This document shows positions 2,174 to 52,453 of a stretch of DNA of 64,000 nt, in pieces. This DNA is from Vulcanimicrobiota bacterium (GTDB lineage: Bacteria > Vulcanimicrobiota > Xenobia > Xenobiales > QWHO01): positions 31,470 through 95,469 of the forward strand of contig JBDHVW010000011.1 in assembly GCA_039809865.1 (NCBI GenBank). The letters are read 5' to 3'. Each line of letters begins with the position of its first letter. Position 1 is the first letter of the stretch. The notes beneath the pieces were generated by a model. It saw only the letters and a list, made by a program, of their open reading frames with translations, was not told the DNA's origin and did not search any database. A program made the position numbers and the translations under genes.

Positions 2174-3217
2174 ATGCGTCGACATCTCGTTCCCGTGCTC
2201 CTACTGCTCTGCCTGGGCGTGCTGATGAATCAGCCTCCGCGCAAGATCGGCGAAGTGGGAGAAGGCCTCACCCTGGCTTCGGTCTCGCCCGATGGCAAGT
2301 TGTGCGCGGGATTGCGCCAGGATGGCTCGTGGAGCTTCGTGGTCTTCGAAGTCGCCAGCGGTAAAGAGCGTTTCGGACAGAAGCTGCCCGACGGCCCGGC
2401 CTCGTTCAACCCGTTCGCCTGGTCGGCCGACAGCGCCACGCTGGTGGTGGGTACCGGCGAGCAAGTTCTGGTGCTGGACAAAAACTTCCAGCGCGTCCGC
2501 AAGCTCAAAGCCGACTGGATGGTGCGCGACGTGCGCTTCAGCGGCTCGGTCCTGATGGCCCGCTGCGACCACGCGGTGCTGCTTTACGAAATGCCCGGCG
2601 GCAAGATGTTCTATCGCCAGGCCCAGCAGCGGCTGCTGGCCGCGCGGCTGAGCCCCGACGCCCGCTACCTGGCGCTGGCCAGCTACGAGGAGCCGATCTT
2701 CGTCTTCGACGTGAAGGAGAAGCGGGTCGTACAGCAACTGAAAGCGGGTCCCGTGACGATCAACCTGGAGTTCTGCCGGAACTCCGAGTGGCTGGCCTGC
2801 GGCTTCCGCTTCCGCGACCAGCGCGACAAAGATCTGGCCCTGGTCTACGACTGGCGCAACGCCCGAATGGTGGGCGACTTCCTGGGTCAGCGCGGCATCA
2901 TGGGTTTTGCGGTGGCCCAGGACGGCTCACGGCTCCTGGCGCGAGGTCTTCAGGAGACCCGCGTCTGGGACGTGGCCACCAGCAAGCTGCTCTGCCTGCG
3001 CACCGTTGATTCGCAGGTGATGGATGCCCTGTCGGCCGACGGTCGAATGGCCGCCTCCGTGCCCGTTGGCCGGAACCAGGCCGTCGTCTGGCACACGGAC
3101 GACGGTCGGGACGGGTTTACCCTGGAAACCCGCACACCGCCGACCGGCGTCTCGTTCCCGGGCCCCGGCCTGGTGGGCGTGACCGCGGGCTCCCAGTCGG
3201 TCTACCAGCTGCCCTAG
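2174..3217 (+). CDS. Secreted beta-propeller (WD40/TolB-like) repeat protein
   Basis: ATG at 2174 after the stop of the upstream gene. N-terminal hydrophobic signal peptide (VPVLLLLCLGVL). Repeated 'DG-hydrophobic' strand motifs typical of beta-propeller blades. The upstream part of the 698-aa ORF in the track is RG-rich antisense noise. Confidence 0.5.
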   Translation: MRRHLVPVLLLLCLGVLMNQPPRKIGEVGEGLTLASVSPDGKLCAGLRQDGSWSFVVFEVASGKERFGQKLPDGPASFNPFAWSADSATLVVGTGEQVLVLDKNFQRVRKLKADWMVRDVRFSGSVLMARCDHAVLLYEMPGGKMFYRQAQQRLLAARLSPDARYLALASYEEPIFVFDVKEKRVVQQLKAGPVTINLEFCRNSEWLACGFRFRDQRDKDLALVYDWRNARMVGDFLGQRGIMGFAVAQDGSRLLARGLQETRVWDVATSKLLCLRTVDSQVMDALSADGRMAASVPVGRNQAVVWHTDDGRDGFTLETRTPPTGVSFPGPGLVGVTAGSQSVYQLP

Positions 3218-6200
3218 AATCCGCTCCAGGTGCGATTGTCCAGCCACATCTCGGTGATCTCCTCGGCCGGGACGGGCTCGCTGAAGTAGAAGCCCTGGGC
3301 GAGCTCGCAGCCTTTATCCAGGAAGAACGTGGCCTGCTCGGGGGTCTCCACGCCCTCGGCCACGGAGCGCACGCCCAGGTTGGAGCAGATGCCCAGGACG
3401 GCCACGCAGATGCTGGCGCCGTGCCGGCTGCCGACGTCGGAGACGAGCGTGCGGTCGAACTTGAGCATCTTGACCTGCGTCAGGCGCTTGAGCGACGAGA
3501 ACCCGACGCCGAAGTCGTCGATGGCGATCGACGCGCCCGTGCGCGCCAGCTCCTCGAGCGTCAGGTCGGTCCGCTCGGGGTCGACCAGGTTGGAGCCTTC
3601 GTTGATGTCCAGCACGATCGACTTGGGATCGGTGTTGGTGACTTCCAGAGCCTTCAAGAACGTCTTGGCCAGGTCGGCCTGCATGAGCTGGCGCGTGCCC
3701 ACGTTGATGGCCGTGAAGATCTCCAGCCCCTCGTCACGCCAGAGCGCCGCCTGACGGCAGCCCTGCATGATCGCCCAGGTACCGATGGGCACGATCAGGC
3801 CGGTCTCGTCGGCGGTCGGCAGGAAGTCGGCCGGGAGCAGCACCTTGTTCAGCTCGGGATGCCGCCAGCGAATCAGCGCTTCGGCCCCGGCCAGGCGACC
3901 GCTCGAGAGGTGGACGATCGGCTGATAAAGCAGCGTAAACTCGTCGTTCTCCAGCGCCTGCCGCAGCTGGCCGTCGAGCGACAGTTTGCGCTGGCGTCGT
4001 TGCTTGAGGTCGGCCGTGTAGAACTGCAGGTTGTTGCGACCGGCTTCCTTGGCGGCCACCATGGCAGTTTCGGCGTGCTCGATGAACTCCTCGGCGGTCT
4101 CCGCGTCCAGGCTGATGCTGGCTCCGATACTGGCGGTGACGTGCAGCTTCTGGTTTTGCACCGAGTACGGGGGCGCCAGGGCTGAGAGAATGCGGTTGGA
4201 CACCAGGGTGGCCATCTGCTTGCAGGCGTTCATCCAGTCTTCGGGCGTGCGCACCTCGGGCAAATCACCCTTCTCCAGCTCCGAGAGGAGGATGAGAAAC
4301 TCGTCGTCGCCCCGGCGCCCCAGCACGTCGGACTCGCGGGTCAGGGCCTTGAGGCGGTCGGCCACCTGGCGCAGCACCTCGTCGCCCGCGCGGAAGCCGA
4401 GCGTGTCGTTGATGACCTTGAAGCGATCGAGATCGATGCACAGCAAGGCGGCACCGCGCTTGTAACGATGGACCTGCTTGAACGTGTAGTCGATGTACTG
4501 CTGGAGAATGTTGAAGTTGGGCAGATTGGTGAGGCGGTCCTCGAACGCCATCCGCTCGGTCTCGGGATCGAGCTCGGCGCCCTCGCCCGATTTCAGGCGC
4601 TCCTCGGCCTCGTGATACTTGCGTTTGAGGTTGTCGATCTCGCGCTCGAGCTCGACCACCTTCTCCTCGGCCGTGCGCAGGCGCGCGCTGGCCTGCACCA
4701 TGCGCTGCTCGGACTGGAAGAGCCGATCGACCGACTCGCGCGCCTTCTGCTCGGCGGTCTTGGCGCGGGCCTCGGTGTCCTCGAGCTTCTTCTTGAGCTC
4801 GTCGAGCCCGGACTGGTCGGCCACGCTCCGGGCACTTTCCAGCGCCTGACGGGCCTGCTCGAGCTCCTCTTTGAGCTGGATCGTGTTGGCCTCGACCTCG
4901 CTGAACTTCTCCTCGAGCTCGGCGGCCCGCTCGTTCGCCTCGTGAGCTTCTTCCTCGAGCTCGGCCTGCTTGGCCTCCGCCAGCTCGGCGCGCTCCACCG
5001 CTTCCAGCTCGGTGCGCTCGGCGTTCTCCAGCTTCTCGCGCAAGGCCGTCATCTCGGCCGAGCTGGTTGACGGCGCCTCGGTCGGCGCGGCCGCGTCGGC
5101 GGTGGCGGCCGTGCGCCCGGTGGCGACTTCCAGCGAGCGCAGCTTGCGCTCGGCCTCGCGGGCGCGCTTCTCGGCCACATCGGCCCGCTCTTCGGCGGCC
5201 CGGGTGGCTTCGTCGGTCTCTTCGTAGATCTGCTTGATCTGCTCGAGGCGGAACTCGGTCTGCTTGAGCTTTTGCTCGAGCTCCTCGGTGGCCTGCGCGG
5301 CCGCCGTCATCTTCTCCTCGGCCTCCTGGGCCCGGGTCTGGGCCTGCTCGAAAGCGTCCTTCGAGGGCGCCGCGGCCAGCTTGTCCTCGGCCTCGAGCAG
5401 GTTGGCCTCGAGCATCTCGAGCATCTCCCGCAATTCGGCAGCCCGCGTCTCGGCGTCAGAGGAGCCCTTGACCTTCGTCTCCAGCTCGTCGATGCGGCCC
5501 TGGTGCTCGGCGGCCTCGGCCTGAGCCTGCTCCAGCTGAGCCTGCAGCTCTTCTCGCAGCTGCTGGGCCTCGGCGAGCTGGGCGTCAAACTCGGCTCGCG
5601 CCTTATCGACGGCCTCGGTATTGGTTTCCAGGGCTTTCTTCTGACGTTCGGCCTCGGCCAGCTTGTCCTCGGCCTCGAGCAGGCTGGCCTGCGCCGTCTG
5701 CAGCTGCTCCTCCATCTCGCCCAGGCGATTCTCGGCCTCGCGCTGCTTGGCCGTCAGGGTGGCGCTGTTGGCCTCGGCCTCTTTCAGCCGGGCCTCGAGC
5801 TCCTTCTGCTTCTCGTCGAGCTCCTCGCGCCGCGCCTGCTCTTCTCGCAGCTTGCTCTCGGCCTCTTCCAGCCGGGTCAGCTTGGTCTCGAACTCGCGCA
5901 GAGCCGCACCGTGGCTTTCATCGGCGTTGCGCAGGCGCTCCTCGAGCTCTTCGCGGGCGCGCTCGACCTCCGAGAGCTTCTCGGCCATGTCGTCCTCGCC
6001 CGCCAGGCGCTCCTCAAGCTCCTTGCGCGCGCGCTCGGCTTCGGAGAGCTGGTCGGCCATGCGTTGCCGGGCCTTGATCTCCTCCTCGTGCTTGAGGTCG
6101 AGGTCTTCGAGCTTGGTCTCCAGCTCGGAAAGGCTGCTCTTGAGGTCGTTCTTGTCGTCCTCCAGCACCAGGAGCTGTTTCTCCAGCACCTCGACCTGGC

Positions 6201-6585
6201 CGCGGGCCGCGGTATGGAGCTTCTCGAGCTCTTCCACGCGGGCCCGGCCCTCGGCTACGGCTTTTTGCTCGAGAACCAGCTTGTCTTCCAGCTCCTCGAC
6301 CTGGGCGTGGGGAAGCTCCATCGAGTCGCGCAGGCGGCGCGCCTTGATCTCGGTCTCGGCCAGGATGGCCCGCAGGTTGATGGCCATCTCTTCGAGCGAG
6401 GGCTCGGGGGTTTCGTCCTCTTCCTCCTCGGCCTCCGGTTCGGCTTCGGCTTCGGCTTCAGCTTCAGCCTCGAGCTCGGCTTCCTCTTCGGGTTTCTCCT
6501 CGGTCACCACCGGAGGATCGACCGCCGGCACCTTGATGGCCCCCGACTGCTTGTTCTTGCCGCCCTTGAACTTGTTCTTGCCCAT
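3214..6585 (-). CDS. Coiled-coil protein (~700 aa) fused to a degenerate GGDEF domain and an EAL c-di-GMP phosphodiesterase domain
   Basis: AAGGAAG RBS 5 bp upstream of the ATG at 6585. Long E/A/L/K/R heptad-like coiled-coil. GGDEF-fold region 'DLDRFKVINDTLG...RRGDDEFLILL' with signature GDDEF (not GGDEF) and an RESD (RxxD) site upstream. EAL motifs EALIRW, DDFGVGFSSL, EGVET and QGFYFS are present. Confidence 0.85.
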   Translation of the reverse strand: MGKNKFKGGKNKQSGAIKVPAVDPPVVTEEKPEEEAELEAEAEAEAEAEPEAEEEEDETPEPSLEEMAINLRAILAETEIKARRLRDSMELPHAQVEELEDKLVLEQKAVAEGRARVEELEKLHTAARGQVEVLEKQLLVLEDDKNDLKSSLSELETKLEDLDLKHEEEIKARQRMADQLSEAERARKELEERLAGEDDMAEKLSEVERAREELEERLRNADESHGAALREFETKLTRLEEAESKLREEQARREELDEKQKELEARLKEAEANSATLTAKQREAENRLGEMEEQLQTAQASLLEAEDKLAEAERQKKALETNTEAVDKARAEFDAQLAEAQQLREELQAQLEQAQAEAAEHQGRIDELETKVKGSSDAETRAAELREMLEMLEANLLEAEDKLAAAPSKDAFEQAQTRAQEAEEKMTAAAQATEELEQKLKQTEFRLEQIKQIYEETDEATRAAEERADVAEKRAREAERKLRSLEVATGRTAATADAAAPTEAPSTSSAEMTALREKLENAERTELEAVERAELAEAKQAELEEEAHEANERAAELEEKFSEVEANTIQLKEELEQARQALESARSVADQSGLDELKKKLEDTEARAKTAEQKARESVDRLFQSEQRMVQASARLRTAEEKVVELEREIDNLKRKYHEAEERLKSGEGAELDPETERMAFEDRLTNLPNFNILQQYIDYTFKQVHRYKRGAALLCIDLDRFKVINDTLGFRAGDEVLRQVADRLKALTRESDVLGRRGDDEFLILLSELEKGDLPEVRTPEDWMNACKQMATLVSNRILSALAPPYSVQNQKLHVTASIGASISLDAETAEEFIEHAETAMVAAKEAGRNNLQFYTADLKQRRQRKLSLDGQLRQALENDEFTLLYQPIVHLSSGRLAGAEALIRWRHPELNKVLLPADFLPTADETGLIVPIGTWAIMQGCRQAALWRDEGLEIFTAINVGTRQLMQADLAKTFLKALEVTNTDPKSIVLDINEGSNLVDPERTDLTLEELARTGASIAIDDFGVGFSSLKRLTQVKMLKFDRTLVSDVGSRHGASICVAVLGICSNLGVRSVAEGVETPEQATFFLDKGCELAQGFYFSEPVPAEEITEMWLDNRTWSGF

Positions 6586-6695
6586 GTGCTTCCTTACCGA
6601 GATTGCTGAAATTCGGCCGTTCGTTTCGAGCCGAGACCCCGCGCGCACCTGCCTGCGGGAAGGAATCTCCCCCCGTCGTGGGGGACTGCCCAGGG

Positions 6696-7946
6696 ATGGG
6701 CGAGGCTTCCGACGAGATGGACCGGGTTCTGGAGGCGCTGGGGCGCGGCGGCCGACACGAATCGGCCGGGTTCTTCACGATCGACGTGATGAAAGCTTTG
6801 CCCAAGCTGAGCCGGCACCAGCTGCCCATGCCTTCTTTCTATCTCCTCAAGTGGGTGCAGTGGGCGGTTGCCGCGCGGGCCCAGAATATCCGGGTGAAGA
6901 CCGGCTCGGGCAAGGTCAGCCTCGAGCATGACGGCGCGGCGCCCTCGGTGGAGCAAATGCAAGACCTGCTCCAGTTCGTTTTTCGCAGCCAGCGCGAGCC
7001 GCTGCATCATCTGGCGGTGGGTATGGCCACGGCGCTCACGCTCGCCCCGCGCGCCGTGCTGGAATGCTGGGATGGACAGGTGGGCCACCGCTGGATCGTC
7101 GAGCCCGGGGGAGTCCGGCTCGACGGAGCGCCCCGCCCCCGGGAGAAACCCTTCTGCCGCCTGACCTTGCCGCGCCAGCCCGACGTGGAAGAGCAGCTCC
7201 TGCGCAACTTCTGCCCCTTCTGCCCGGCCGCCCTGACGATCAATTCGTCGCGGGTGGACCGGCAGCTCTTCGGGGCGCCGGAGCGTCCCTGGCTGTTCCG
7301 CAACGTGCTGGAGAAGGTCCTGCCCGACAGCGAGGCGTTGGGTCGGCTCTATCGCCAGGCTATGCGCATGCCCGCGTCGTTCAGCGCGGGAGAGGAGCTC
7401 AAATCCAAGCTGCCCTGGTGGTTCCTCATCTTCCACATCGAGGAATACGTGCTGGGCTCGGTGCACCGTCATCACCACCTGCTGGAAGCCCAGTTGGTGC
7501 GTAACCTGCCCACCGATCGCGTGGGAGTGCCCCCCGACAGCCGCGCCAGCCTGCGCTGTCACATCGGCATGGAGGAGAGGGGGGCCGATTGCTGGGCCCT
7601 CATCGCCGTGGAGACCTCGCTGGAGGAGCAGGCCCGCGTTGCCTTCGTGCGCGACGGCGTGCTGATTCCCGCGCAGGCGCCGCCACTCCCTCTGCCGGGG
7701 CTGGTGATGGCCATCTCCAGCTATGGCCTGACGACGGACGCAAGCGAGTTCGCGCTGGTCGAGGATGACGCGCTGCGCACGGTGTGGGAGACCCTTCAGG
7801 AGCGCCTGAGCGAGCTGGCCGAGAAGCTGCTCAAAGCTTGCGAGGACAAGCAGATTCCGCTGGACTGGTATGTCCAGCCACGCTTGCAGAGCCACTATAG
7901 GGAAAACCGTTTGCGGCGCGAACGAGGGCGTTACTTCGGGACCTGA
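6696..7946 (+). CDS. Hypothetical protein. Its N-terminal region is paralogous to the CDS at 59369..60946.
   Basis: ORF with an ATG at 6696 (MGEASDEMDRVLEAL...). Shared motif G-FTID...KL..QL..P..Y.L..V..AV with the 59369 gene. No recognisable catalytic motifs. Confidence 0.5.
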   Translation: MGEASDEMDRVLEALGRGGRHESAGFFTIDVMKALPKLSRHQLPMPSFYLLKWVQWAVAARAQNIRVKTGSGKVSLEHDGAAPSVEQMQDLLQFVFRSQREPLHHLAVGMATALTLAPRAVLECWDGQVGHRWIVEPGGVRLDGAPRPREKPFCRLTLPRQPDVEEQLLRNFCPFCPAALTINSSRVDRQLFGAPERPWLFRNVLEKVLPDSEALGRLYRQAMRMPASFSAGEELKSKLPWWFLIFHIEEYVLGSVHRHHHLLEAQLVRNLPTDRVGVPPDSRASLRCHIGMEERGADCWALIAVETSLEEQARVAFVRDGVLIPAQAPPLPLPGLVMAISSYGLTTDASEFALVEDDALRTVWETLQERLSELAEKLLKACEDKQIPLDWYVQPRLQSHYRENRLRRERGRYFGT

Positions 7947-7977: not shown

Positions 7978-9174
7978 ATGCAGATTCAGGGCAGTGGCAA
8001 GGGCTGGGTGAAGCTCTTGATTCTCGGCGGTGCCGTGGTGATCGGCTTGCCGCTCGTCGTGGGCGGGCTCTACTTCTTGTTCGGCAACAAGGGGGAGAAA
8101 GAGTCGGCTCCCAAGCCCGAGGAGAAGCCGCCGCAAGACCGGCCGAGCCCCGAGAAAGCAATCGCGCAACCGATCGTTCCCCAGCCCGTAGGCACCAATG
8201 GCTCGTCGGCTCCGCCGCCGGTTGCGGAGGCTCCCCCGCCCAAAGAAGAGCCCCAGATGCTGGAAGAGGTCGTGCCGGTGGAGGAGTCGTTCGAGCGCAT
8301 CGAGGAGTCGGTGGAAGAGTCTTACGAGATCCCCGCCAGCCTGGAGACGCTGCCCGTGTCTTCGGAGGAGTCGCCCCGCGTGGTGCCGGCCGAGATCCAG
8401 GAGTTCCGCTCGGCCATGGTGGCCGCCATGCGTCTGCTCGAGGAGAAGGAGCCGCCCAAATGGCTGTCCTCGATGCTGGGCAACGTCAAATCGTTCGGGG
8501 TGGACAGCGAGAAGACGCCCGACCGGCGCCGCAGCATTCGCGTCCACAGCCAGCTGGCGCTCGACTTCAAGCTGGGCGACAAGACCGGTCAGGCGCAGGT
8601 GGTCAACATCGGCCTTGGCGGCCTGCACCTCTATCTCGATATCGAGCCCGAGCGGGGCGATACGATCGTGCTGCTCGACCCGGCCGTGGGCAAAGCCAGG
8701 CCCATCGGCATCAAATACCAGGTGCAGTGGGTGCGCAAGATGCCGCGCAGCACGCGCCTGCTGGTGGGCGTGAACTATGACGAGAAGCCCGAGACGCTGG
8801 CCAGGTCCCGCCTGGCGCAGCTGTTGTCCGAGCTCGGGTTTCTCGAGAAGCTCATCTACCGGCGTCGGCGCAGCCGCCGCGTCAAAGCGCGCATCGAGGT
8901 GGCCGTCAACAAGCAATATGACGGCACCGTGCTGAACATCGGCGTGGGAGGCGTGCTGCTCGAGTGCGCCGAGGAGCTGGCCGAGGGCGCCAACATCTCC
9001 CTCACCGTCGGTCCCCAGGGCCGACTGTACGCTCTGAACACCGCCGGGGAGATCCGCTATCGCCTGAAGACCGAAGAGGGATGGCATTACGGAATCCGAT
9101 TCTTGCACTTGAATCCGGATCAAGTCAAACTTCTGGGCAAATACGTGCTGGAGCAATTGAAGGAAGAGGCTTAG
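7978..9174 (+). CDS. Membrane-anchored tandem PilZ-domain protein (putative c-di-GMP receptor)
   Basis: GGAGG RBS 5 bp upstream of the ATG at 7978. N-terminal TM helix, then a Pro/Glu-rich linker. Two PilZ signatures: RRRSIR...DxxLGGLHL and RRRRSRR...NIGVGGVLL. Confidence 0.75.
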   Translation: MQIQGSGKGWVKLLILGGAVVIGLPLVVGGLYFLFGNKGEKESAPKPEEKPPQDRPSPEKAIAQPIVPQPVGTNGSSAPPPVAEAPPPKEEPQMLEEVVPVEESFERIEESVEESYEIPASLETLPVSSEESPRVVPAEIQEFRSAMVAAMRLLEEKEPPKWLSSMLGNVKSFGVDSEKTPDRRRSIRVHSQLALDFKLGDKTGQAQVVNIGLGGLHLYLDIEPERGDTIVLLDPAVGKARPIGIKYQVQWVRKMPRSTRLLVGVNYDEKPETLARSRLAQLLSELGFLEKLIYRRRRSRRVKARIEVAVNKQYDGTVLNIGVGGVLLECAEELAEGANISLTVGPQGRLYALNTAGEIRYRLKTEEGWHYGIRFLHLNPDQVKLLGKYVLEQLKEEA

Positions 9175-9215
9175 CGACCGGGAAATCCCTCAGGATTGGC
9201 TCGCCGGAGGTGGGG

Positions 9216-10810
<1,595 letters not shown>

Positions 10811-10814
<4 letters not shown>

Positions 10815-12241
10815 AGCGGTTGGGCCTGGTCCTGCTGCTGGGACTCGTCCTGGCAGCCGTCTACTTCTTCGTGCGAGGCGGCAGCGGCGTGGAGGTCACG
10901 ACCGCCGCCGTGGAGCGTGGCTCGGTCAGCGAGAACCTGGACGAGGACGGTATCGTCAAGAGCGATCTGGAAGCCGAGCTGGCCCCCCGCATCCAGGGCC
11001 GTCTGGCCCGGTTGCTGGTCAAAACGGGTCAGCACGTGCGCAAAGGGCAACTGCTGGCCTCGCTCGAGCAGGCCGACCTGGAGGCGGCGGTCGCCGCGGC
11101 CCGGGCCAACGAGCAGGCCGCCGCCGCCACGGTGGAGCAGGCGCGGGCCCAGGCCGAGCTACAGCGAGGCACGGTGGCCGCCGAGCTATCCCAGTCGCAG
11201 GCTGCGCGCGACGTGGCGGCGGCCAACCTCTCCAAGGTCGAGGAGGGGGCGCGTCCTCAGGACCGACTCACGGCGCAGCGCCGTTACGAGGCCGCCCGGG
11301 CCTCCGAGGAGGAGGCGCGAGCCAACTACAAGCGCAACAAGCAGTTGTTCGAACAGGGGTATGTCTCCGCCCAGCAGGTCGAGGCGACCCGCACCGCGCT
11401 CGGCACGGCCACCGCCAACCGCCAGGCGGCCCTGGCCGAGCTGAGCTCGCTGGACGCGCGCCGGCAGGACCTGGCGGCCTCGCGGGGCGAGTTGGAGCGG
11501 GCCGTGGCCTCCGAGCAGGGAGCGGCGGCCCGTCAGGGGCAGGTGACCGTCTCCGAGCGCGAGGTGGCCGCCGCCGAAGCCCGGCTGGAGAGCGCACGGG
11601 CCGGCCGGGAGCAGGCCCAGGCCAATCTGGCCATGGCCGAAATCCGGGCCCCGCGCGACGGGGAGATCGTGCTCGACGAGGTGGAGCCGGGCGAGGTGAT
11701 CGGACCGGCCAACCGCTTCGGCCGTTTGATCGACCCGTCCCACATCTGGGTGGAGATGCTGCTGGACGAGAACGACCGCGGCCGCGTGGAAGAAGGCCAG
11801 AAAGTGGTCATCACCACGGACGCCTACCCGGGCGTCGAGTTCGCCGGCACATTGGAGCGCATCGAATCGCTGGCACAGCTCAAGCGGCAGCTGCGCGGCA
11901 CGCCCACGCAGGATGAGGACCGCGTTTTTCGCAGCCGGGTGCGCCTGACTTCGGTCGAAGCGGACGGCAAACGCCTCTATCCGGGCATGTCGGTCTTCGC
12001 CGAAGTGGTCCTGCGCCAGCTCGAAGGGGTGTTGTTCGTGCCCCGCGAGGCGCTGGTGAGCCGCGAGGGCAAGTGGGTGGTGCTGGTGGTGGACGGCGCG
12101 CGTGTGAGCGAGCGCGTCATCAAGGCAGGCAGCCGCGACGCCAACCGGGTCGAGGTCCTGGAAGGTCTGCGCGAGGGCGATCGGGTGGTGCTCAACCCGG
12201 GCAACCTGCGCGACGGCGCGCGCGTGCGCGCACGGACGTGA
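10811..12241 (+). CDS. HlyD/MacA-family periplasmic adaptor (membrane fusion protein) of a tripartite efflux system
   Basis: TTG start overlapping the upstream stop. N-terminal TM anchor, long A/E/Q-rich coiled-coil hairpin, and a C-terminal beta-barrel region typical of HlyD/MFP proteins. Confidence 0.8.
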
Positions 12242-15639: not shown

Positions 15640-16121
15640 CCGACGACCTCACCCTGCGCGGCAAGTGGACCCTCCGGGCCCACGGCAAGACGCGCGTGTT
15701 CGTCAAGCGCTCGGTCGAGAGCGGGGCTCACGTCTTGATGAAGGCGCTCCTGTGGGCGCTCTATCTTCCTCAGTACCCGGACGTGGCGGTCGAGATCTCG
15801 ATCGGCCATCGCTATAAGCCCGACCTGATCGCCATGGTCGACGGCCAGCCGTGCTTCTGGGGCGAATGCGGCCATGTCGGGCTGCAAAAGCTGCGCACAC
15901 TCTTGACGAAATTCCGCCGCACCCACTTCGCCTTTGCCCGCTGGGCGACGCCCCTGCGGGCCCACGACGAAATGATCGCGCGGGCGATGGAGGGCGTGCG
16001 GCGCGAGGCACCGGTCGAGCTCTGGCGTTTTCCCGAGGACAGTGCCGAGCGCTTCGTGGATGCCCGAGGAAACATCCGCCTGGATTTCGCCCAGTTGGAA
16101 GGGCGGCGCTACGAGGGATAA
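15636..16121 (+). CDS. Hypothetical protein, possibly a PD-(D/E)XK nuclease-fold protein
   Basis: ORF translationally coupled (TTG) to the upstream gene. 'PDVAVEISIGHRYKPD' resembles the D...E-x-K core of PD-(D/E)XK enzymes. The start codon is uncertain. Confidence 0.35.
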   Translation: MTDDLTLRGKWTLRAHGKTRVFVKRSVESGAHVLMKALLWALYLPQYPDVAVEISIGHRYKPDLIAMVDGQPCFWGECGHVGLQKLRTLLTKFRRTHFAFARWATPLRAHDEMIARAMEGVRREAPVELWRFPEDSAERFVDARGNIRLDFAQLEGRRYEG

Positions 16122-16447
16122 GGCCTCGTCCGTACCTCCAGCTCCGTGAGCCGAACCAGCGCCTCCGCGTCCGTGCTCCCGCACATTTCCCGGGACGGCA
16201 TCAAAGACGAGCAGACCGCCGGCCTCTCGGGCTGGCCGAAAATCTTGCAGCGATTCGCGCTGTCGAGTTGCACGCAGCGCACGCCCGCGGGTTTGCCTTC
16301 GGGCATTCCGGGGATCGCCGAGCTGATCGAGGGGGCGATGCAGCAAGCGCCACAGCCGACACGACATTCCACCTCACCAGGGTAAGCGGTGCGCCCCGAG
16401 AAACGCAAGGCGATGGAGATCGAAGCCGCCCTTCGCCAACACGCCAA
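16109..16447 (-). CDS. YkgJ-family cysteine-cluster (Fe-S/Zn-binding) protein
   Basis: 'CRVGCGACC...C..........C' cysteine pattern characteristic of the YkgJ/UPF0153 family. The start codon is uncertain, and the 5' end overlaps the divergent neighbour. Confidence 0.5.
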   Translation of the reverse strand: MACWRRAASISIALRFSGRTAYPGEVECRVGCGACCIAPSISSAIPGMPEGKPAGVRCVQLDSANRCKIFGQPERPAVCSSLMPSREMCGSTDAEALVRLTELEVRTRPYPS

Positions 16448-17060
16448 TCCCGAGCGCGCGCACGGGATGAAAGCTTACATGCGCGATCAGTTCGAATATC
16501 TCGGCTTGCAGTCCACCGAGCGACGCCGTCTCTCCAGACCCCACCTCCAGGCGCTGCCTCCCGCGCAGCTGAAGAAAGCCATCCACCACCTCTACGCCCT
16601 GCCCGAGCGCGAGTTCCAGTACTTCGCCGTCGAACTGGCCGCGAAGTCCCACAGGCTCTGGGTGCCCGAGCAACTGGCGCTCTGGAAGTGGATGGTCGGG
16701 CACAAATCGTGGTGGGATACGGTCGATTGCCTCTCCACCAAAGTCGTGGGCGTCCACATGAAGAAATTTGGCGGCGACGTCGACAGCTGGATCGATGCGC
16801 CAGACTTCTGGCTGCAGCGCGTGGCCCTGCTCTATCAGCTCGACTACAAGAAGGACACCGACCCGGCCAAACTCTTTCACCACATCGACCGGGTCATCGA
16901 CTCGCAGGAGTTCTTCCTGCGCAAAGCTATCGGGTGGGCTCTGCGCCAGTATGCCCGAATCGCTCCCGACGAGGTCAGGAGGTTCGTGCAATCGCGCCCG
17001 CAGCTCTCCGGGTTGTCACGGAGGGAGGCGCTCAAACACTTGCAGAAGGAGCCGGCATGA
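16413..17060 (+). CDS. DNA alkylation repair enzyme (AlkC/AlkD-like HEAT-repeat glycosylase family)
   Basis: 'ANPERAHGMKAYMRDQFEYLGL', 'WWDTVD' and the helical-repeat composition match the DNA_alkylation (pfam08713) family. Start chosen at the ATG 'MEIEAAL'. A GTG at 16389 is an alternative. Confidence 0.7.
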   Translation: MEIEAALRQHANPERAHGMKAYMRDQFEYLGLQSTERRRLSRPHLQALPPAQLKKAIHHLYALPEREFQYFAVELAAKSHRLWVPEQLALWKWMVGHKSWWDTVDCLSTKVVGVHMKKFGGDVDSWIDAPDFWLQRVALLYQLDYKKDTDPAKLFHHIDRVIDSQEFFLRKAIGWALRQYARIAPDEVRRFVQSRPQLSGLSRREALKHLQKEPA

Positions 17061-18046
17061 GCTATGACGCCCTGCTGCTGGTAAGCTTCGGTGGTCCGGA
17101 AGGCCCCGACGATGTAATGCCCTTCCTCGAGAACGTCTTGCGCGGACGCAACGTCCCGCGCGAACGAATGCTGGAGGTCGCCGAGCACTATCAGCACTTT
17201 GGCGGCGTCAGCCCCATCAACGGGCAAAATCGAGCTCTGCTGGCGGCTCTGCAGGACGAGCTCGAGCGCCACCAGATCCCCCTCCGGCTCTACTGGGGCA
17301 ACCGCAACTGGCATCCTTACCTGCGCGATACGCTGCAGCACATGGCCGAGGACGGCGTGCAGAGAGCCCTGGCTTTCATGACCTCGGCCTACAGCTCTTA
17401 TTCGGGCTGCCGCCAGTACCGCGAGGATGTGGCCCGGGCCCGCGCCGAGGTGGAGGGCGCCCCCGAGGTCGACAAGCTGCGCGTCTTTTACAACCATCCC
17501 GGCTTCATCGGCACCCAGGCCGAGCTCCTGACCCGGACTCTGGCTGGGAATCCCGGTCCGGTGCTGTTCACCGCCCACAGCCTGCCGATGTCCATGGCCA
17601 ACAATTGTCGCTATGTCGAGCAGCTCGAGGAAGCCTGCCGCCTGGTTGCCGCCGAGACCGGCGTAACCGAGTGGAAGCTTTGCTGGCAGAGCCGCAGCGG
17701 TCCTCCCACTCAGCCCTGGCTAGAGCCCGACGTCTGCGACGTGATGCGCACGATGCAGGGAGCCGTGACGCTCTGTCCCATCGGCTTCATCTCGGACCAC
17801 CTCGAGGTGCTCTACGACCTCGATACCGAGGCACGGGAGCTGGCCGTCGAGTTGGGCCTGAAATTTGCTCGCTGCCCGACGGTGGGAACCCATCCCCGTT
17901 TCGTGGCCATGATCCGCGAGCTGATCCAGGAGCGCCTGCGCGGCGACGAGCGTCTGGCCGTGGGGCGCTTCGGCCCCAGCCACGATGTTTGCCCCCAAAG
18001 CTGCTGCCCGGCGGCGACCCGGCCGGTTACGGCTCCAGCATCTTGA
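17057..18046 (+). CDS. hemH: Ferrochelatase
   Basis: 'LLVSFGGPEG', 'SAYSSYSGCRQY', 'LFTAHSLP' and 'HLEVLYDLD' are canonical ferrochelatase motifs. The ATG overlaps the upstream stop. Confidence 0.9.
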   Translation: MSYDALLLVSFGGPEGPDDVMPFLENVLRGRNVPRERMLEVAEHYQHFGGVSPINGQNRALLAALQDELERHQIPLRLYWGNRNWHPYLRDTLQHMAEDGVQRALAFMTSAYSSYSGCRQYREDVARARAEVEGAPEVDKLRVFYNHPGFIGTQAELLTRTLAGNPGPVLFTAHSLPMSMANNCRYVEQLEEACRLVAAETGVTEWKLCWQSRSGPPTQPWLEPDVCDVMRTMQGAVTLCPIGFISDHLEVLYDLDTEARELAVELGLKFARCPTVGTHPRFVAMIRELIQERLRGDERLAVGRFGPSHDVCPQSCCPAATRPVTAPAS

Positions 18047-47314: not shown

Positions 47315-50300
47315 CTACTCGGGGGGCTTGGGTCCCTGGCGATCCGGGTCGGCTTTGGTCAAGATCGGGCGGCGCCCCGTGCCGAAAGGCGTGGTGGGCG
47401 CTCCCTTCTGGCCTTCGCCGCTGTCGGGGGCGGGGAACTCGGTGCGCGGAGCGGCCCCGAACTCGGTGCGCGTGGAGCGGGCCGGGGTGGGAGCTTCCTC
47501 CTCGGTGTTGGGCACGCCCACGCCGCCGACCTCGTCCTCGAAGGAAACGGGTGGAGCGTCCTCAACCGGCTCGGAGCTGGGCGGCGGTGCACCCGGAGGC
47601 GTGGAAGCGCCGGTGCCGGGTCGCACGTTGGGCAGGGTGGGAGGCTTGCCGGGCAAGGAGCTCAAGGGCTTGTTGCCGCCGATGGTGGCTGCCGGAGGCT
47701 TGTTGCCGGTGGGCAGCCCGCCCAGCGGCTTGTTGCTAAAAGAGCTCAACGACGACGGCGGCTTGGGGCCACCGGGCGGAGTGCTGCTCAAGGGCTTGTT
47801 GACCGCCGACGTCAGGGGAGACGTCGCGGGAGTCGTGGGCGGCTTGACGGTCGGCGGAGTGACCGGGGCCGTGGGCGGCTTGACCAGCGGAGACGGCAGC
47901 CGGGTGGTCTCCACCAGGCCCGAGCTGGGCGGCTTGACCGAGCCGGACGGCGGCGGCGCGAACGACGGCGTCTTCACCGCCGGACCGACCGACGAGGGCG
48001 GGCCCGCCTCGAACGAGGGGGCGCCGGGGACCTCGATGGACGGCTCCACCGCGTGCTCGGGCATGGCGAACGCCGGGGTCTCGGAGGCGGCGTGCGCCCC
48101 CTCCTCTTCCTCGTGCGCGATGGGACCCTTGATCTGGGAGGTCAGCTCCATCGACGACGTGTCGGGAACCTGACCGCCCCACTGGTTGCGCAGCTTCTTG
48201 GCCAGCGAGGTGACGCGCTCGAGCAGGTTGCGGCCCGCCTCGGCCCGCTCCTCGCCGGGAGCCTCATCCAGCTCGAACGGATCCACGCCCAGGTCCTCGA
48301 GCTTCTTGAAGACCGAGGCCATCTCGGCCTTGGGATCGAGGAAGTAGAGCGAGCCGCGCAGGCGGATGAAACGCCAGCCCATGCGGGTCAGCACCACCTC
48401 GCGGTAAATGTCGGCCGGCAGCTTCTCGGGCGGATACTCGCTCTCGCCGTAGCACTTGATGGCCACGCGGCCACCTTTGCCCTCCACGATGAGATCGAGC
48501 TGGTAGGAGCCGACTGGCTGGTGGATGTTGACCCGATAGCCGGCCTTCCGCAGCCACTCGCCGACCTTCTGATGGAACTCGTAATCGCTCTTGGGACCGC
48601 CCACCACCCGCTCGCGCTCGAGGTCGGGCGAGGGCGGGGCCAGCGTCGACGGGTCCCGGGCGAAGCGGATCAGCATCTCGCGCAGGTCGCCCTGCTTGAG
48701 GTGCTTCATCGGATCGAGCGAGTGGACCACCCACATCTGGTCGCGGGCGCGGCTGGCGGCCACGTTGAAGCGCTTCACGAAGACGTCGGAGCGACGGATG
48801 GCCACGGGGCCCTCGCCCTCGGGCGCGTCCACCATCGACAGGAAGATCACGTCGCGCTCGTCGCCCTGGAACTGGGCGGCGTTACCGCACACGATGCGAC
48901 GCCGGCGATACTCGGTGAGCGGCAGATGCTGCACCAGCAGTCGATCGATCAGTTTGGCCTGGTCGTCGCCCACCAGCGTCACCACGCCCATCGTGCAGTG
49001 GGCATATTCCGGCTGCATGGTGGCCGCCACGAGCAGCGAGGCCACTTCGAGCGCCTCGGGCTCGTTGACTTTGCGGTCGGAGCTGGCTTCTTGCAGGTAA
49101 TGGCTGACCGTGGGCGGCGTGACCTTGACCCCGTAGCCCTCGCGCAGCGGCAACACCTCGTAGTCGTAGCAGAGCGCGTTCGAGAACGCGATGATCTCGG
49201 GCACCGAGCGGAAGTGCTCCAGCAGGCGCAGCGAGCCGCCAAAGGACTGACGCGCCAGGTCGTAGACGCTGGTGGTGCCGTCGTAAAGCTCGCGGTTGGG
49301 GATGTCGGAGAGGAACTCGTCCGACAGCGCCTTGGCGAAGTGTTGGGCCTGCCCCACGCCCTCGGGCGATACCTGCTGGTGGTCGCCCACGACCAGGACC
49401 TGCTTGCCCAGAGCCAGCGCCGTCAAACCGCGCAGGTCGCACTGGGAGGCCTCGTCCAGGATGACCACGTCGAAGGCCGACTGGCCCGGCTGGAAGCTTT
49501 CGGCCACGCGCGAGAGCGGCATGATCCAGACCGGCACCGACTCGCGGCACTCGGCCAGCGACTCGCGGGCGGTCGCGCGCAGCTCGGCGGCGCGCTTGCC
49601 GGTGCCCGCGCCGACTTTGCGCATCAGGTCGAGCCAGCCGACCAGGGCCTGCTGCTGGCGCACGCCGGTGCGTCGCAGCTGGGCGGCCCAGGCCTGGTTC
49701 TCGACGTAGCGCACCGAGGTCTCTTGCAACGCGTCGCGCAGGCGGGTGCACTCCTTGTGCAACTCGTCGAGGTCTTCCTGACCGATCGCTTTGAGGGCGA
49801 GCTCCCAGCTCTTGTGTTTCCAGGCGCGCAGTGGATCGCCCGGAGGCTTGCCCTGGTCGTGCGGCGGGATGCGGGTCTGCAGCGCCGCCGCCCAATCGGG
49901 GGCGGCCACGCGCAGGCGCTCCAAGAGGTCGCGCCGGCGCTCGTACTTCTCGACGTGGCGGGTGAGGTCGGCCACGCGGTTCCAGGCCGCCGAATAGGCC
50001 TGGGCGTCGCGATCGTTGGCCGCCTTCTTGATCTTGTAGCCCAGCGTGGTGGGATTCTGGGTGGACGGATTCTCGTTGAGATAGTCCAGCATCATCTGGA
50101 AGCGCGCAAAGAGCGGACGCCATTCCAGCTGGTCCATGCGGCGGTTGATGCCGGGTTCGACCACCTGCGCCAGCGCGGTTTTGATGCGCAAGAGCTCGCC
50201 GCCCTGCTCGGCGCTGGGCGCCACGGCCTCGAGCACCTTGTCCCAGGCCACCGAGCACTTCTTGAGAGCTTTCTCGATGGGACCGAAGAACTCGACCAGC

Positions 50301-52453
50301 CAGTTCAGCGCCAGGCGAATCTGGCGGGCGTACTGCTGGCACACGGCCTCGGGGTGCTCGCCCAGCTGATCCGACGAAGGCACGCCGCGGCCCGTCATCT
50401 GGCGGTCCCAGCGACGGCGCAGGCCTTCGCGGCGAATGCGCAACTGCAGTAAGGCGTGCAGGGCCTGGAAGTGGTCCAGCGTGCTGGGGCGCGCGCCGTC
50501 CACCCGGGCCGAGTCGAGGAACTTCTTCCAGTTGGGCTTGAGCAGCGTCTGCTGCCACCCGACCGAGCGCCCCGACTCGACCAGCGCGATCAGCGCGGTG
50601 CAAATCTTCTCGGCCTCGGCGTCGGGCATGTCGGTGTTGAGCACCGGCCCGGCCTGGAACACGCGCCGCTCGAGCGAAGCGGTCTCGGCCACGACCTTCT
50701 CGATGTAGTCGGCCAGGTCTTCCCACGACTGGCGGTACTCCTCGCCCACGCGCACCGACCAGGCGCAGTCGAGGAACCACGGCTCGGCGCCCGACAACGA
50801 CTCCAGCGCGGCCCGGGTGACCTTGAGCAGCGACTGCAAATCTTCGGGGTCTTGCTGGTCGTTGGCCCAGATGACGCCCGGATCGCTCGGGTTGGGGCCC
50901 AGGCGACCCTCCAGCTCCAGCATGTGGCGCAGCCGGTTCTCGGAGACGATGCGATCGAGCGGCGGCAGGTTGCCGGCCAGCTCCTTCTCGTCGATGGTGG
51001 TGAACTGGTCGTGGAAGCCGTACAGCTCGGCGATCTCCTCCACGCTGAGCGGAAGCGGCGCGCCGCCTTCGACCGAGCCGGGAATCCAGTCGTGGGCTCC
51101 CCGCCCCTCGGCCACCGCGCGAGCCGCGTTGACCGGGTGGATGGCCTCGCTGCCGAGCAGCCCTGCCGTGCTGTACTCCTGGCGGCACGAGTCGAGCAAG
51201 CGCTGCTCGGCCTGGCGGAGGCGGTCCTTGAGCTCGGTGCGCCGCCGCTCGTAGCTGTCGGCCAGCTTGGTCATCTCCTCGGGGTCGCTGTGGGTGAAGC
51301 GGTCCACGATGCCTTTGACCGAGATCTCCAGCTGCTCGCGGCTCTCCTGGTCGTTGTCGAGCACGCTGACGCAAAGCGGGCGGAGAGCGGGCGAAACCAT
51401 GCCGCGCAGCACGCGCAGGGCCTTGGTCGTGTGCGAGGTGACCAGCACGGTCTTTCCCTCGGCCAGCAGGTGGCCGATCAGGTTGGCGATGGTGTGCGTC
51501 TTGCCGGTTCCGGGCGGTCCCTGGACCAGCACGCAACCCATCTTGTCCAGACGTTCGCCGACGCGCTCTTGCTCGGGGTTGGATGGCAGCGTGTAGAGCA
51601 GCTCGAAGGGCCGGTCGGTCTGGCGACCCGGAGCCCGGTCCTCGATGCCGACGATCCGCACCAGAGCGGGCGGGAGCTCTTTCAGGTTGGGCAGGATCTC
51701 GAGGAAGCCCTCGATGGCTTGCGTCAGGCCCAGATGGCGCTGCCCCAGGTAAACCACGGCCTCGGACGCCAGCCAGGGGCGACCCTGGGGAGGCGTGGCC
51801 AGACCGCCAGGGCCGACGTAGTTGATGCCCAGGATCTTGGCGAGCCCCTCGAGCAGCACCTGAGAGCCCGCCTCGTAGGTGTGCGCCTCGAGGAAGCGTC
51901 GGCAGCTGCCGATGCGATTGCCGTCGACGCCGGACCAGTGCAGCACGGCGCTGTATAGCTCGGCGCCCCGGTCGGCCTCGCGCAGAGTGAACTCGGGGAT
52001 CTCGGGGTTGAAGTCGATCGACAGGCTCCAGACCGCGAGGGGATGGTAAACGGTTCCTTTGCCCGAGGTCCAGGCGAGCACGGCCTGGCCGAACATCAGC
52101 TCATAACGATCCGATTCGCGCTCGAGCAGGCGCCAGACTTCGAGCAGCCGGTCGAAGAGCTGACGGGCGCCGCGATCAGCCGGAGTGGCCGCTTCGGGCC
52201 GGGCCGGGGGAGTGGGACGGCGGACCTTGAGAACAAAATCGCTGGAAGGATCGTCTATACCCGGTGTGGGGACCGGGATGCGGCCGACCACGAGACAGGG
52301 GTGCTTGGGCAAGTCGGAAATGCGCAGCCCCCACGGGTGATCCTTGAGGTGGATCCTCGGTGGATGAGCTGCCTGCTGCAATCCGGACAAAAAGCGGAAT
52401 AGCCGGAAGATCCGGTCCCGCGCCAGGGCCTGTTCTTCGTGCGAGAGTGCCAT
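47315..52453 (-). CDS. Giant DUF4011-type protein: an Upf1-like superfamily-1 helicase (AAA_11/AAA_12) fused to a DUF559 (Vsr/PD-(D/E)XK-like) endonuclease domain, with a ~280-aa Pro/Thr-rich C-terminal tail
   Basis: Walker A 'VQGPPGTGKTHTI'. Helicase motifs 'VVILDEASQ', 'VVGDHQQVSP' and 'RIVCGNAAQFQGDERDVIFLSMV'. C-terminal 'VNIHQPVGSYQLDLIVE...VAIKCYGESEYP' is DUF559-like. A low-complexity KPP/TPP tail follows. Confidence 0.85.
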   Translation of the reverse strand: MALSHEEQALARDRIFRLFRFLSGLQQAAHPPRIHLKDHPWGLRISDLPKHPCLVVGRIPVPTPGIDDPSSDFVLKVRRPTPPARPEAATPADRGARQLFDRLLEVWRLLERESDRYELMFGQAVLAWTSGKGTVYHPLAVWSLSIDFNPEIPEFTLREADRGAELYSAVLHWSGVDGNRIGSCRRFLEAHTYEAGSQVLLEGLAKILGINYVGPGGLATPPQGRPWLASEAVVYLGQRHLGLTQAIEGFLEILPNLKELPPALVRIVGIEDRAPGRQTDRPFELLYTLPSNPEQERVGERLDKMGCVLVQGPPGTGKTHTIANLIGHLLAEGKTVLVTSHTTKALRVLRGMVSPALRPLCVSVLDNDQESREQLEISVKGIVDRFTHSDPEEMTKLADSYERRRTELKDRLRQAEQRLLDSCRQEYSTAGLLGSEAIHPVNAARAVAEGRGAHDWIPGSVEGGAPLPLSVEEIAELYGFHDQFTTIDEKELAGNLPPLDRIVSENRLRHMLELEGRLGPNPSDPGVIWANDQQDPEDLQSLLKVTRAALESLSGAEPWFLDCAWSVRVGEEYRQSWEDLADYIEKVVAETASLERRVFQAGPVLNTDMPDAEAEKICTALIALVESGRSVGWQQTLLKPNWKKFLDSARVDGARPSTLDHFQALHALLQLRIRREGLRRRWDRQMTGRGVPSSDQLGEHPEAVCQQYARQIRLALNWLVEFFGPIEKALKKCSVAWDKVLEAVAPSAEQGGELLRIKTALAQVVEPGINRRMDQLEWRPLFARFQMMLDYLNENPSTQNPTTLGYKIKKAANDRDAQAYSAAWNRVADLTRHVEKYERRRDLLERLRVAAPDWAAALQTRIPPHDQGKPPGDPLRAWKHKSWELALKAIGQEDLDELHKECTRLRDALQETSVRYVENQAWAAQLRRTGVRQQQALVGWLDLMRKVGAGTGKRAAELRATARESLAECRESVPVWIMPLSRVAESFQPGQSAFDVVILDEASQCDLRGLTALALGKQVLVVGDHQQVSPEGVGQAQHFAKALSDEFLSDIPNRELYDGTTSVYDLARQSFGGSLRLLEHFRSVPEIIAFSNALCYDYEVLPLREGYGVKVTPPTVSHYLQEASSDRKVNEPEALEVASLLVAATMQPEYAHCTMGVVTLVGDDQAKLIDRLLVQHLPLTEYRRRRIVCGNAAQFQGDERDVIFLSMVDAPEGEGPVAIRRSDVFVKRFNVAASRARDQMWVVHSLDPMKHLKQGDLREMLIRFARDPSTLAPPSPDLERERVVGGPKSDYEFHQKVGEWLRKAGYRVNIHQPVGSYQLDLIVEGKGGRVAIKCYGESEYPPEKLPADIYREVVLTRMGWRFIRLRGSLYFLDPKAEMASVFKKLEDLGVDPFELDEAPGEERAEAGRNLLERVTSLAKKLRNQWGGQVPDTSSMELTSQIKGPIAHEEEEGAHAASETPAFAMPEHAVEPSIEVPGAPSFEAGPPSSVGPAVKTPSFAPPPSGSVKPPSSGLVETTRLPSPLVKPPTAPVTPPTVKPPTTPATSPLTSAVNKPLSSTPPGGPKPPSSLSSFSNKPLGGLPTGNKPPAATIGGNKPLSSLPGKPPTLPNVRPGTGASTPPGAPPPSSEPVEDAPPVSFEDEVGGVGVPNTEEEAPTPARSTRTEFGAAPRTEFPAPDSGEGQKGAPTTPFGTGRRPILTKADPDRQGPKPPE

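Follow-up and report, generated by a model that had tools for sequence, protein, structure and literature searches.

A cyclase-degenerate GGDEF domain and an EAL domain behind a long acidic coiled coil: a rare protein layout in a Vulcanimicrobiota bacterium

Proteins that join a GGDEF to an EAL domain are among the commonest signalling enzymes of bacteria, and how each of them signals locally is an open question in the field. Here, we analysed a gene that raises this question in an unusual form: how might an EAL phosphodiesterase be controlled when the place ahead of its GGDEF domain is taken by about 600 residues of acidic coiled coil? The gene lies on the minus strand of a 64,000-nucleotide stretch of DNA from a Vulcanimicrobiota bacterium (assembly GCA_039809865.1, contig JBDHVW010000011.1, positions 31,470 to 95,469 of the forward strand), which is called the window in the following and to which coordinates refer unless another locus is named. 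Judging from the domains and their motifs, we propose with moderate confidence that the protein is a PdeA-like phosphodiesterase of cyclic dimeric guanosine monophosphate (c-di-GMP), gated by guanosine triphosphate (GTP), in which the sensor would be replaced by a long acidic coiled-coil stalk that makes the enzyme dimerise and serves it as a spacer or tether. The layout is new for this very well-known enzyme class, and rare, but not a new kind of system.

Gene, coiled-coil stalk and hinge

The minus strand between 3214 and 6585 is occupied by one long open reading frame (ORF) with a product of 1123 residues, and the coordinates, strand and domain order that a sequence-only reading of the same DNA had given were correct when checked against the ORF list and Pfam. 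The motif AAGGAAG stands 5' of the ATG at 6585, and the N-termini of homologues (MGKNKF or MAKNKF) coincide with this codon; hence, we take it as the start. An upstream GTG at 6648 was dropped, since the homologues begin at the MGKNKF/MAKNKF position. A protein identical over all 1123 residues (P0001) is found in a public collection, where it derives from an NCBI contig of 134 kb and an ENA metagenome scaffold. Long antisense ORFs within the gene (e.g. 5272-6609 and 5663-6931, both on the plus strand) are regarded as shadows of the GAG/GCC/CTG-rich coding strand in DNA of about 67% GC, and those checked gave no family matches. A promoter and terminator scan of positions 3000-7100 yielded nothing exceeding the shuffle expectation, and the whole window contained neither a transfer RNA nor an Rfam match. 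From N- to C-terminus, the protein consists of a basic tail, an acidic low-complexity tract, the heptad coiled coil, a Gly/Pro hinge, a GGDEF domain and an EAL domain:

3214..6585, minus strand: complete coding sequence, 1123 residues plus stop codon at 3214-3216 (ORF list, translation, ribosome-binding site)
6526..6585, minus strand: basic N-terminal tail, residues 1-20, MGKNKFKGGKNKQSGAIKVP, net charge +6 (AlphaFold predicted local distance difference test, pLDDT, below 50)
6397..6525, minus strand: acidic low-complexity tract, residues 21-63 (EAEAEAEAE...), net charge -20 (predicted disordered)
4591..6396, minus strand: heptad coiled coil, residues 64-665, net charge -62 (AlphaFold helices, heptad score, period-3.5 Fourier power)
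4540..4590, minus strand: hinge and short pre-GGDEF helix, residues 666-682, SGEGAELDPETERMAFE (pLDDT below 50 at 665-676)
4030..4545, minus strand: GGDEF domain with degenerate active site (A-site), residues 681-852 (Pfam E 2.4e-35)
4327..4338, minus strand: RESD, residues 750-753, RxxD motif of the inhibitory site (I-site) (sequence reading)
4297..4311, minus strand: GDDEF, residues 759-763, in place of GG(D/E)EF (sequence reading)
3274..3969, minus strand: EAL domain, residues 873-1104 (Pfam E 1.8e-59)
3598..3609, minus strand: DINE, residues 993-996, the ExxE motif, with Asp as the equivalent of RocR E265 (alignment to MorA ELTE)

A full-length search recovered about 19 clusters with the same layout and lengths of 880 to 1420 residues (alignment A1), and an additional family member, P0028, surfaced in a search with the stalk only. 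As a baseline for the architecture, we used 80 ordinary GGDEF-EAL loci from species-representative genomes. None of these 80 proteins has a coiled-coil-like N-terminal stretch of at least 200 residues (maximum 173), compared to 421-651 residues in the family loci and 657 in the protein studied here. The earlier claim of an unusual architecture is thus borne out.

The coiled coil itself was claimed to span about 700 residues, of which roughly 600 (64-665) remain, as residues 1-63 are a disordered tail. AlphaFold2, run on the alignment of 19 sequences, placed six helices of 41 to 153 residues in this region (64-193, 198-350, 364-404, 409-496, 508-587 and 591-665) with breaks at 194-197, 351-363, 405-408, 497-507 and 588-590; pLDDT values were mostly 60-85 in the stalk and below 50 in the hinge (665-676), and residues 1-63 came out as disordered. 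Between residues 91 and 675, Glu (22.6%), Ala (16.8%), Leu (12%), Arg (8.5%) and Lys (7.5%) predominate, with 0.9% Pro and 1.9% Gly. The heptad fit exceeded the 95th percentile of composition-matched shuffles in 54% of the 28-residue windows, and the hydrophobic Fourier power at period 3.5 lay 5-16 standard deviations above shuffles (z up to 16.5) in five of the six helices and 2.6 standard deviations above them in the helix of 41 residues. This signal is specific to period 3.5 and absent at 3.6. Long helices, 3.5 periodicity and scarce Pro and Gly are what is generally expected of a heptad coiled coil, so that residues 64-665 qualify as one on three independent grounds. Within the clade, the length of the stalk is kept (5-9 gapped positions of 602 in comparison to relatives), and it would measure roughly 90 nm if fully extended (602 residues at about 0.15 nm each).

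K/R-rich N-termini resembling the basic tail also occur in P0002-4, P0006, P0013-P0016 and P0028, and the acidic tract is weakly conserved (37-57% identity, with indels). The tract is encoded by a hexanucleotide-based tandem repeat at 6420-6503 (periods of 6, 12 and 24 nucleotides), and its variation in length and sequence among close homologues is consistent with slippage of this repeat.

A designation of the coiled coil as SMC-like did not survive. NCBIfam SMC models scored 45-46 bits against cut-offs of 567-729 and covered only arm residues of about 239-490, Pfam gave no SMC_N or SMC hinge match, and both an ATPase head and an SMC hinge are missing. The likeness to SMC proteins and tropomyosin consists of composition, heptad periodicity and weak matches to Tropomyosin and SMC-arm profiles, which stay far below the cut-offs and cover coiled-coil segments only; an actin-binding periodicity as in tropomyosin is absent as well. 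Among Pfam families, the N-terminal 680 residues matched Tropomyosin alone, below threshold (E 1.9e-4), and a PDB sequence search with the stalk returned nothing significant (best E 0.037). A phmmer search of the stalk against 1.84 billion representatives, in which the composition correction of HMMER may conceal further relatives, found its own cluster, one PAS-coiled-coil-GEDEF-EAL protein (P0028) and one short coiled-coil protein. As this search brought up nearly nothing else, the stalk appears to be without detectable relatives beyond the family. Self-BLAST revealed no extended internal repeats in the stalk; only two short motifs occur twice, LLEAEDKLA (positions 302 and 396) and ERAR.ELEERL (positions 184 and 208).

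Could the protein then be a filament-forming, coiled-coil-rich cytoskeletal element in the manner of crescentin, FilP or Scy, carrying a phosphodiesterase as cargo, so that c-di-GMP would be drained locally at a pole or along the filament? The long heptad coiled coil with its tropomyosin-like composition would suit such an element, as would the lack of both a sensor domain and a transmembrane segment, and the conserved basic tail could serve as an anchor. However, the stalk search just described brought no sequence similarity to known cytoskeletal families, and a net charge of -62 disfavours lateral self-association unless counter-ions or partners intervene. We therefore consider a cytoskeletal filament improbable.

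The transition from the stalk to the GGDEF domain bears on a further explanation. In Rec-, PAS- or LOV-GGDEF cyclases such as DgcR, PadC and WspR, a parallel coiled coil runs into the wide turn at the DxLT motif (PMC8041772). In the family, a conserved segment, (D/E)(P/R)ETxRLAFxDxLT, likewise runs into the wide turn of the GGDEF domain, DxLT being D683-R-L-T686 in our protein. One could thus imagine an extremely long signalling helix by which an N-terminal sensor passes a conformational change or a shift in register on to the GGDEF-EAL module, all the more as sister clades show a weak PAS-like N-terminal domain (below threshold in four sequences, E 6e-4 to 2e-3; 22.9 bits in P0028). In contrast, Pfam gave no PAS match in the protein studied here, which has a disordered tail only at the position of an N-terminal sensor. 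The linkers of DgcR, PadC and WspR comprise tens of residues, are discretised in length and continue to DxLT, whereas the stalk has about 600 residues and is followed by a Gly/Pro hinge before DxLT. Such a hinge is present in the PAS-bearing clade as well, and the stalk is interrupted by the five further helix breaks. Family members have N-terminal regions of anything between 467 and 991 residues, with no evident discretisation. Hinge, variable length and missing sensor together argue against a register-shift helix of the DgcR/PadC type, which we regard as very unlikely, and favour a dimerising tether or scaffold. The same applies to the hinge taken by itself: at least two Gly or Pro residues stand within the last 30 residues before the conserved segment in 10 of 20 family sequences (the 19 of alignment A1 and P0028; SGEGAELDP in our case), and this, combined with the low pLDDT of residues 665-676, points towards a tether and not a rigid signalling helix.

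The GGDEF and EAL domains

The GGDEF domain matches PF00990 with 122 bits, above the cut-off of 23.8, and aligns with the GGDEF domains of MorA and PA0575. Its active-site signature is not canonical, as had been claimed before: GDDEF stands in place of GG(D/E)EF, and among the 19 aligned members we counted GEDEF 13 times, GDDEF four times, GEDDF once and CEDQF once. The canonical form is found in none of them, and the second position is acidic (Asp or Glu) in all 19. The residues D718/D720, N726, D735, R757, D761, K846 and R850, which serve active cyclases in holding their substrate, are invariant in the family, N726 and D735 being the equivalents of the guanine-binding N182 and D191 of DgcR (PMC8041772). 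An RxxD motif is kept in 15 of the 19 members; in our protein, it reads RESD and is separated from GDDEF by exactly five residues (VLGRR), just as the sequence-only reading had it. Given this deviating signature, a classification of the protein as an active cyclase is not warranted.

GEDEF is known as the motif of CC3396 (PdeA) from Caulobacter crescentus, a GTP-activated c-di-GMP phosphodiesterase with the layout PAS-GGDEF(GEDEF)-EAL. Christen et al. 2005, as cited in PMC4823724, reported that its GGDEF domain is without cyclase activity, binds GTP and activates the adjoining EAL domain. The protein studied here shares with it the GGDEF-EAL tandem, an acidic residue for the second Gly, the GTP-contacting residues (N726, D735, K846, R850 and D720) and a competent-looking EAL domain. 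It differs from PdeA in its 600-residue coiled coil and disordered charged tail and in one EAL metal ligand that is Asp; PdeA carries a PAS sensor instead and lacks a long coiled coil.

Could GDDEF nevertheless still synthesise c-di-GMP, making the protein bifunctional? All substrate- and metal-binding residues are intact except for the second Gly, and the coiled coil could pair two GGDEF domains. On the other hand, the closely related GEDEF domain of CC3396 is, in the account cited above, inactive as a cyclase, and not a single family member has reverted to GG(D/E)EF, so that we give a bifunctional enzyme hardly any credence. Allosteric control by a nucleotide, which had been suggested before, is plausible in light of the acidic second position in 19 of 19 members and the invariant guanine- and phosphate-contacting residues. 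The suggestion that the I-site might bind GTP was mistaken, as this site binds c-di-GMP and GTP would occupy the A-site.

The EAL domain matches PF00563 with 201 bits (cut-off 31.3) over profile positions 3-236 of 236. Its motifs are EAL (902-904), N961, DINE (993-996), DDFG (1023-1026), K1042, EGVE (1077-1080) and Q1097, and the residues E902, R906, N961, E996, D1023, D1024, K1042, E1077, E1080 and Q1097 are present, including those for substrate recognition (R906 of EALxR, D1024 of DDFG and Q1097 of QG). The predicted model superposes on EAL structures with a root-mean-square deviation (rmsd) of 1.5-2 A and a TM-score of about 0.9, the latter also for the EAL structures of PdeA (3u2e, 3s83 and 4hjf). 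Hence, the earlier statement that the EAL domain looks competent stands, while "all catalytic motifs intact" has to be weakened to nearly all, the equivalent of metal ligand E265 being D993.

The best matches for residues from about 680 to 1120 are MorA (PA4601) and PA0575 (RmcA) of Pseudomonas aeruginosa, with 276 and 263 bits, Foldseek E values of 1e-42 and 3e-41 and 34% identity. Both differ from our protein in that they have a canonical GGDEF motif and transmembrane or PAS sensor regions and lack a long coiled coil. In the structure of PA0575, the GGDEF domain is occupied by GTP, and this GTP-bound form (5m3c_B; TM-score 0.83, rmsd 3.6 A) and MorA gave the best superpositions with the modelled GGDEF-EAL tandem.

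Taken together, we picture a cytoplasmic phosphodiesterase of the PdeA/CC3396 type, the EAL domain of which would be controlled by the adjoining cyclase-dead, nucleotide-binding GGDEF domain, with GTP in the degenerate A-site and possibly c-di-GMP in the RxxD I-site. The usual PAS, GAF or transmembrane sensor would give way to about 600 residues of acidic heptad coiled coil, joined to the enzyme module by the flexible Gly/Pro hinge. EAL phosphodiesterases function as dimers, and the most likely role of the stalk is thus to dimerise the GGDEF-EAL module, presumably in parallel. It is plausible that the stalk also acts as a spacer or scaffold which places the enzyme at a defined site, with the conserved basic N-terminal tail as a candidate anchor; the localisation to a filament or scaffold that the sequence-only reading had suggested is a conjecture of this kind.

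Selection pattern, family and a sensing scaffold

Which part of the protein is under the strongest selection? Ratios of non-synonymous to synonymous substitution rates (dN/dS) were calculated from codon alignments with the two closest relatives for which DNA was at hand, P0002 in locus L087 (79% identity) and P0003 in L082 (71%). They amount to 0.025-0.036 for the GGDEF domain, 0.125-0.184 for the EAL domain, 0.25-0.30 for the coiled coil and about 0.4 for the disordered tail. The degenerate GGDEF domain is thus the most constrained part of the protein, and purifying selection of this strength marks it as a working module, not a decaying relic. When the family members are compared pairwise, conservation of the GGDEF domain exceeds that of the EAL domain in 164 of the 171 pairs, with mean identities of 55% and 45%.

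This pattern also fits a different idea, according to which the protein is a scaffold or effector that senses nucleotides and not primarily an enzyme. The coiled coil and GEDEF would form its core, binding of GTP and/or of c-di-GMP (at the RxxD I-site) would alter partners or assembly, and the EAL domain would be weak or serve in sensing alone. Degenerate GGDEF receptors such as PopA are precedents for it, as are "trigger" phosphodiesterases. A sensing scaffold would account for the high constraint on the GGDEF domain and for the RxxD motif being kept by most members (15 of 19). In a sister clade (P0006, P0012-15 and P0028), the coiled coil and GEDEF are kept while the metal ligands of the EAL domain degenerate, and in the clade of our protein a metal ligand of the EAL domain has changed from Glu to Asp. 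Against this idea, all other catalytic and substrate residues of the EAL domain are present in our protein, a dN/dS of 0.13-0.18 shows purifying selection on this domain too, and a carboxylate is always kept at position 993. We consider the sensing scaffold unlikely, although it is the main alternative.

Several observations count against the PdeA-like phosphodiesterase that we prefer. (i) That the GGDEF domain is more constrained than the EAL domain would be expected of a sensor or effector no less than of an enzyme. (ii) The EAL domain of the sister clade reads DRFG or DNFG and VGVE with two metal ligands lost; it is predicted to be catalytically dead, and phosphodiesterase activity would then not be what the family conserves. 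(iii) The AlphaFold2 model is that of a monomer with a predicted template modelling score of 0.38, and a parallel, dimeric coiled coil is a supposition. (iv) Loop 6 of the EAL domain reads DFGVGFSS and deviates by T/A to V and Y to F from the consensus DFG(T/A)GYSS, which Rao et al. are said to have given in 2009. (v) The magnesium site is not intact in the strict sense: of the seven residues listed for RocR (E175, N233, E265, E268, D295, K316 and E352; PMC2952852), six are identical (E902, N961, E996, D1023, K1042 and E1077), and the equivalent of E265 is D993, an assignment based on the alignment to MorA (ELTE vs DINE) and on the spacing relative to the RocR list. With regard to the last point, family members carry either Asp or Glu at position 993. 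The change is conservative, and the metal site is apparently kept, since the position always carries a carboxylate.

For a coiled coil combined with an EAL domain, TipF of Caulobacter is the nearest described case. It has a coiled coil ahead of its EAL domain and is a c-di-GMP-dependent factor of polar flagellar assembly, the function of which lies in localisation and partner binding (PMC3792480). In contrast to our protein, TipF is membrane-anchored, has a short coiled coil and no GGDEF domain, and its EAL domain is a non-catalytic receptor; our analysis established homology between the two for the EAL fold only. The papers searched contained no account of a GGDEF-EAL protein with a long coiled coil.

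The family is found in uncultured lineages only. Its named members P0012 and P0013 derive from metagenome-assembled genomes of Eremiobacterota/Vulcanimicrobiota, and P0150, a fragment belonging to the clade of P0017, from one of Phycisphaerales. A scan of genome contigs with the family alignment matched generic GGDEF motifs and ordinary GGDEF-EAL loci alone (the 80 that served as the baseline above) and no family member, and a profile search with the hinge and GGDEF region (A2) returned only short (<360 residues) generic GGDEF proteins and the fragment P0150. In a Vulcanimicrobiota relative, a second, shorter GGDEF-EAL gene (548 residues) is convergent to the family member and overlaps it (L085 11131-12777, L086 5433-7079).

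Neighbouring genes and meaning for the family

Does the genomic surrounding point to a partner? The sequence-only reading had placed the gene next to a tandem-PilZ receptor and a hybrid kinase. Both are present, although an ORF of 416 residues intervenes and transcription is divergent, so they do not share an operon with our gene. The surrounding genes are as follows:

2174..3217, plus strand: WD40/beta-propeller gene, convergent, its 3' end overlapping our gene by 4 base pairs (Pfam, gene calls)
6696..7946, plus strand: ORF of 416 residues with no family match, divergent from our gene (called as a gene on the source contig)
7978..9174, plus strand: PilZ protein of 398 residues with one transmembrane helix and two PilZ domains (Pfam PilZ, two stretches, E 7e-22)
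9216..10814, plus strand: PAS-HisKA-HATPase-REC hybrid histidine kinase, start inferred at ATG 9216 (Pfam, start candidates)
10811..12241, plus strand: HlyD/MacA-type membrane-fusion protein, next in the PilZ-kinase operon (Pfam HlyD_3, HlyD_D23)

The 416-residue ORF had no sequence match in Pfam, NCBIfam or PDB. It is missing from the same position in L082 and L087 and may hence be an insertion specific to this lineage; its N-terminus (LLKWVQWAVAARAQNIRV), when read by eye, recalls a degenerate motif I of GHKL ATPases. In the PilZ protein, an N-terminal transmembrane helix is followed by a Pro/Glu-rich linker and the two PilZ domains, which both contain RxxxR (RRSIR and RRSRR) and have NIGxGG instead of the usual (D/N)xSxxG. 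The protein matches the paralog-domain model TIGR02266 below threshold (41.6 bits vs 68.7).

The order PilZ, kinase, fusion protein and its divergent position are kept in the window (7978-12241, plus strand), in L082 (1751-7857) and in L087 (181-4495). Kinase orthologues of 526-530 residues come after PilZ in L082 and L087, and in L082 the module continues with genes for an ABC ATPase and an FtsX permease. This order suggests a c-di-GMP-responsive export module resembling MacAB. Farther out in the family, L084, L085 and L090 lack the arrangement, and in L089 nearby PilZ genes echo it loosely. We therefore regard the link to PilZ and kinase as a shallow adjacency among relatives of 71-79% identity and not as evidence of a functional unit.

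Three further ORFs in the window stood out. An ORF of 1712 residues (47315-52453, minus strand) combines superfamily-1 helicase-like domains (AAA_11, AAA_12 and AAA_30) with an MTES_1575 restriction-endonuclease-like domain, and one of 748 residues (52564-54810, minus strand) a metallo-beta-lactamase fold with two cyclic-nucleotide-binding domains. A ferrochelatase domain forms residues 406-695 of a maximal ORF of 731 residues (15851-18046, plus strand). Its N-terminal extension is probably an open-frame artefact in high-GC DNA, since the database protein has 329 residues. The nearest named relative of this ferrochelatase is from the unclassified "bacterium CPR1" (77%), a name for which no paper turned up, and Planctomycetota come next with about 65%. 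Ferrochelatase is also close to the orthologue of our gene in L087.

A bolder picture would unite stalk, domains and neighbourhood. The coiled coil and GEDEF, as the conserved unit of the family, might constitute a nucleotide-regulated ruler, tether or filament, and GTP and/or c-di-GMP bound to the degenerate GGDEF domain would govern how it assembles or recruits partners. Its EAL domain could be a confined c-di-GMP sink here and a second receptor in other clades. Such a protein would be a cytoskeleton-like c-di-GMP device of poorly studied phyla that possibly acts on the neighbouring module of membrane-anchored tandem-PilZ protein, kinase and MacAB-like exporter. We offer this picture as a long shot with a small chance of being right.

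What do these results mean for the family? As it is small and restricted to uncultured lineages, the immediate impact is modest. For local signalling, a phosphodiesterase carried by a stalk that would reach about 90 nm when extended, together with a tail that is a candidate anchor, would be a natural spacer design. The constraint on the GGDEF domain and the decay of the EAL domain in the sister clade furthermore point to the same conclusion, that the nucleotide-sensing domain, and not the catalytic one, looks like the heart of this family.

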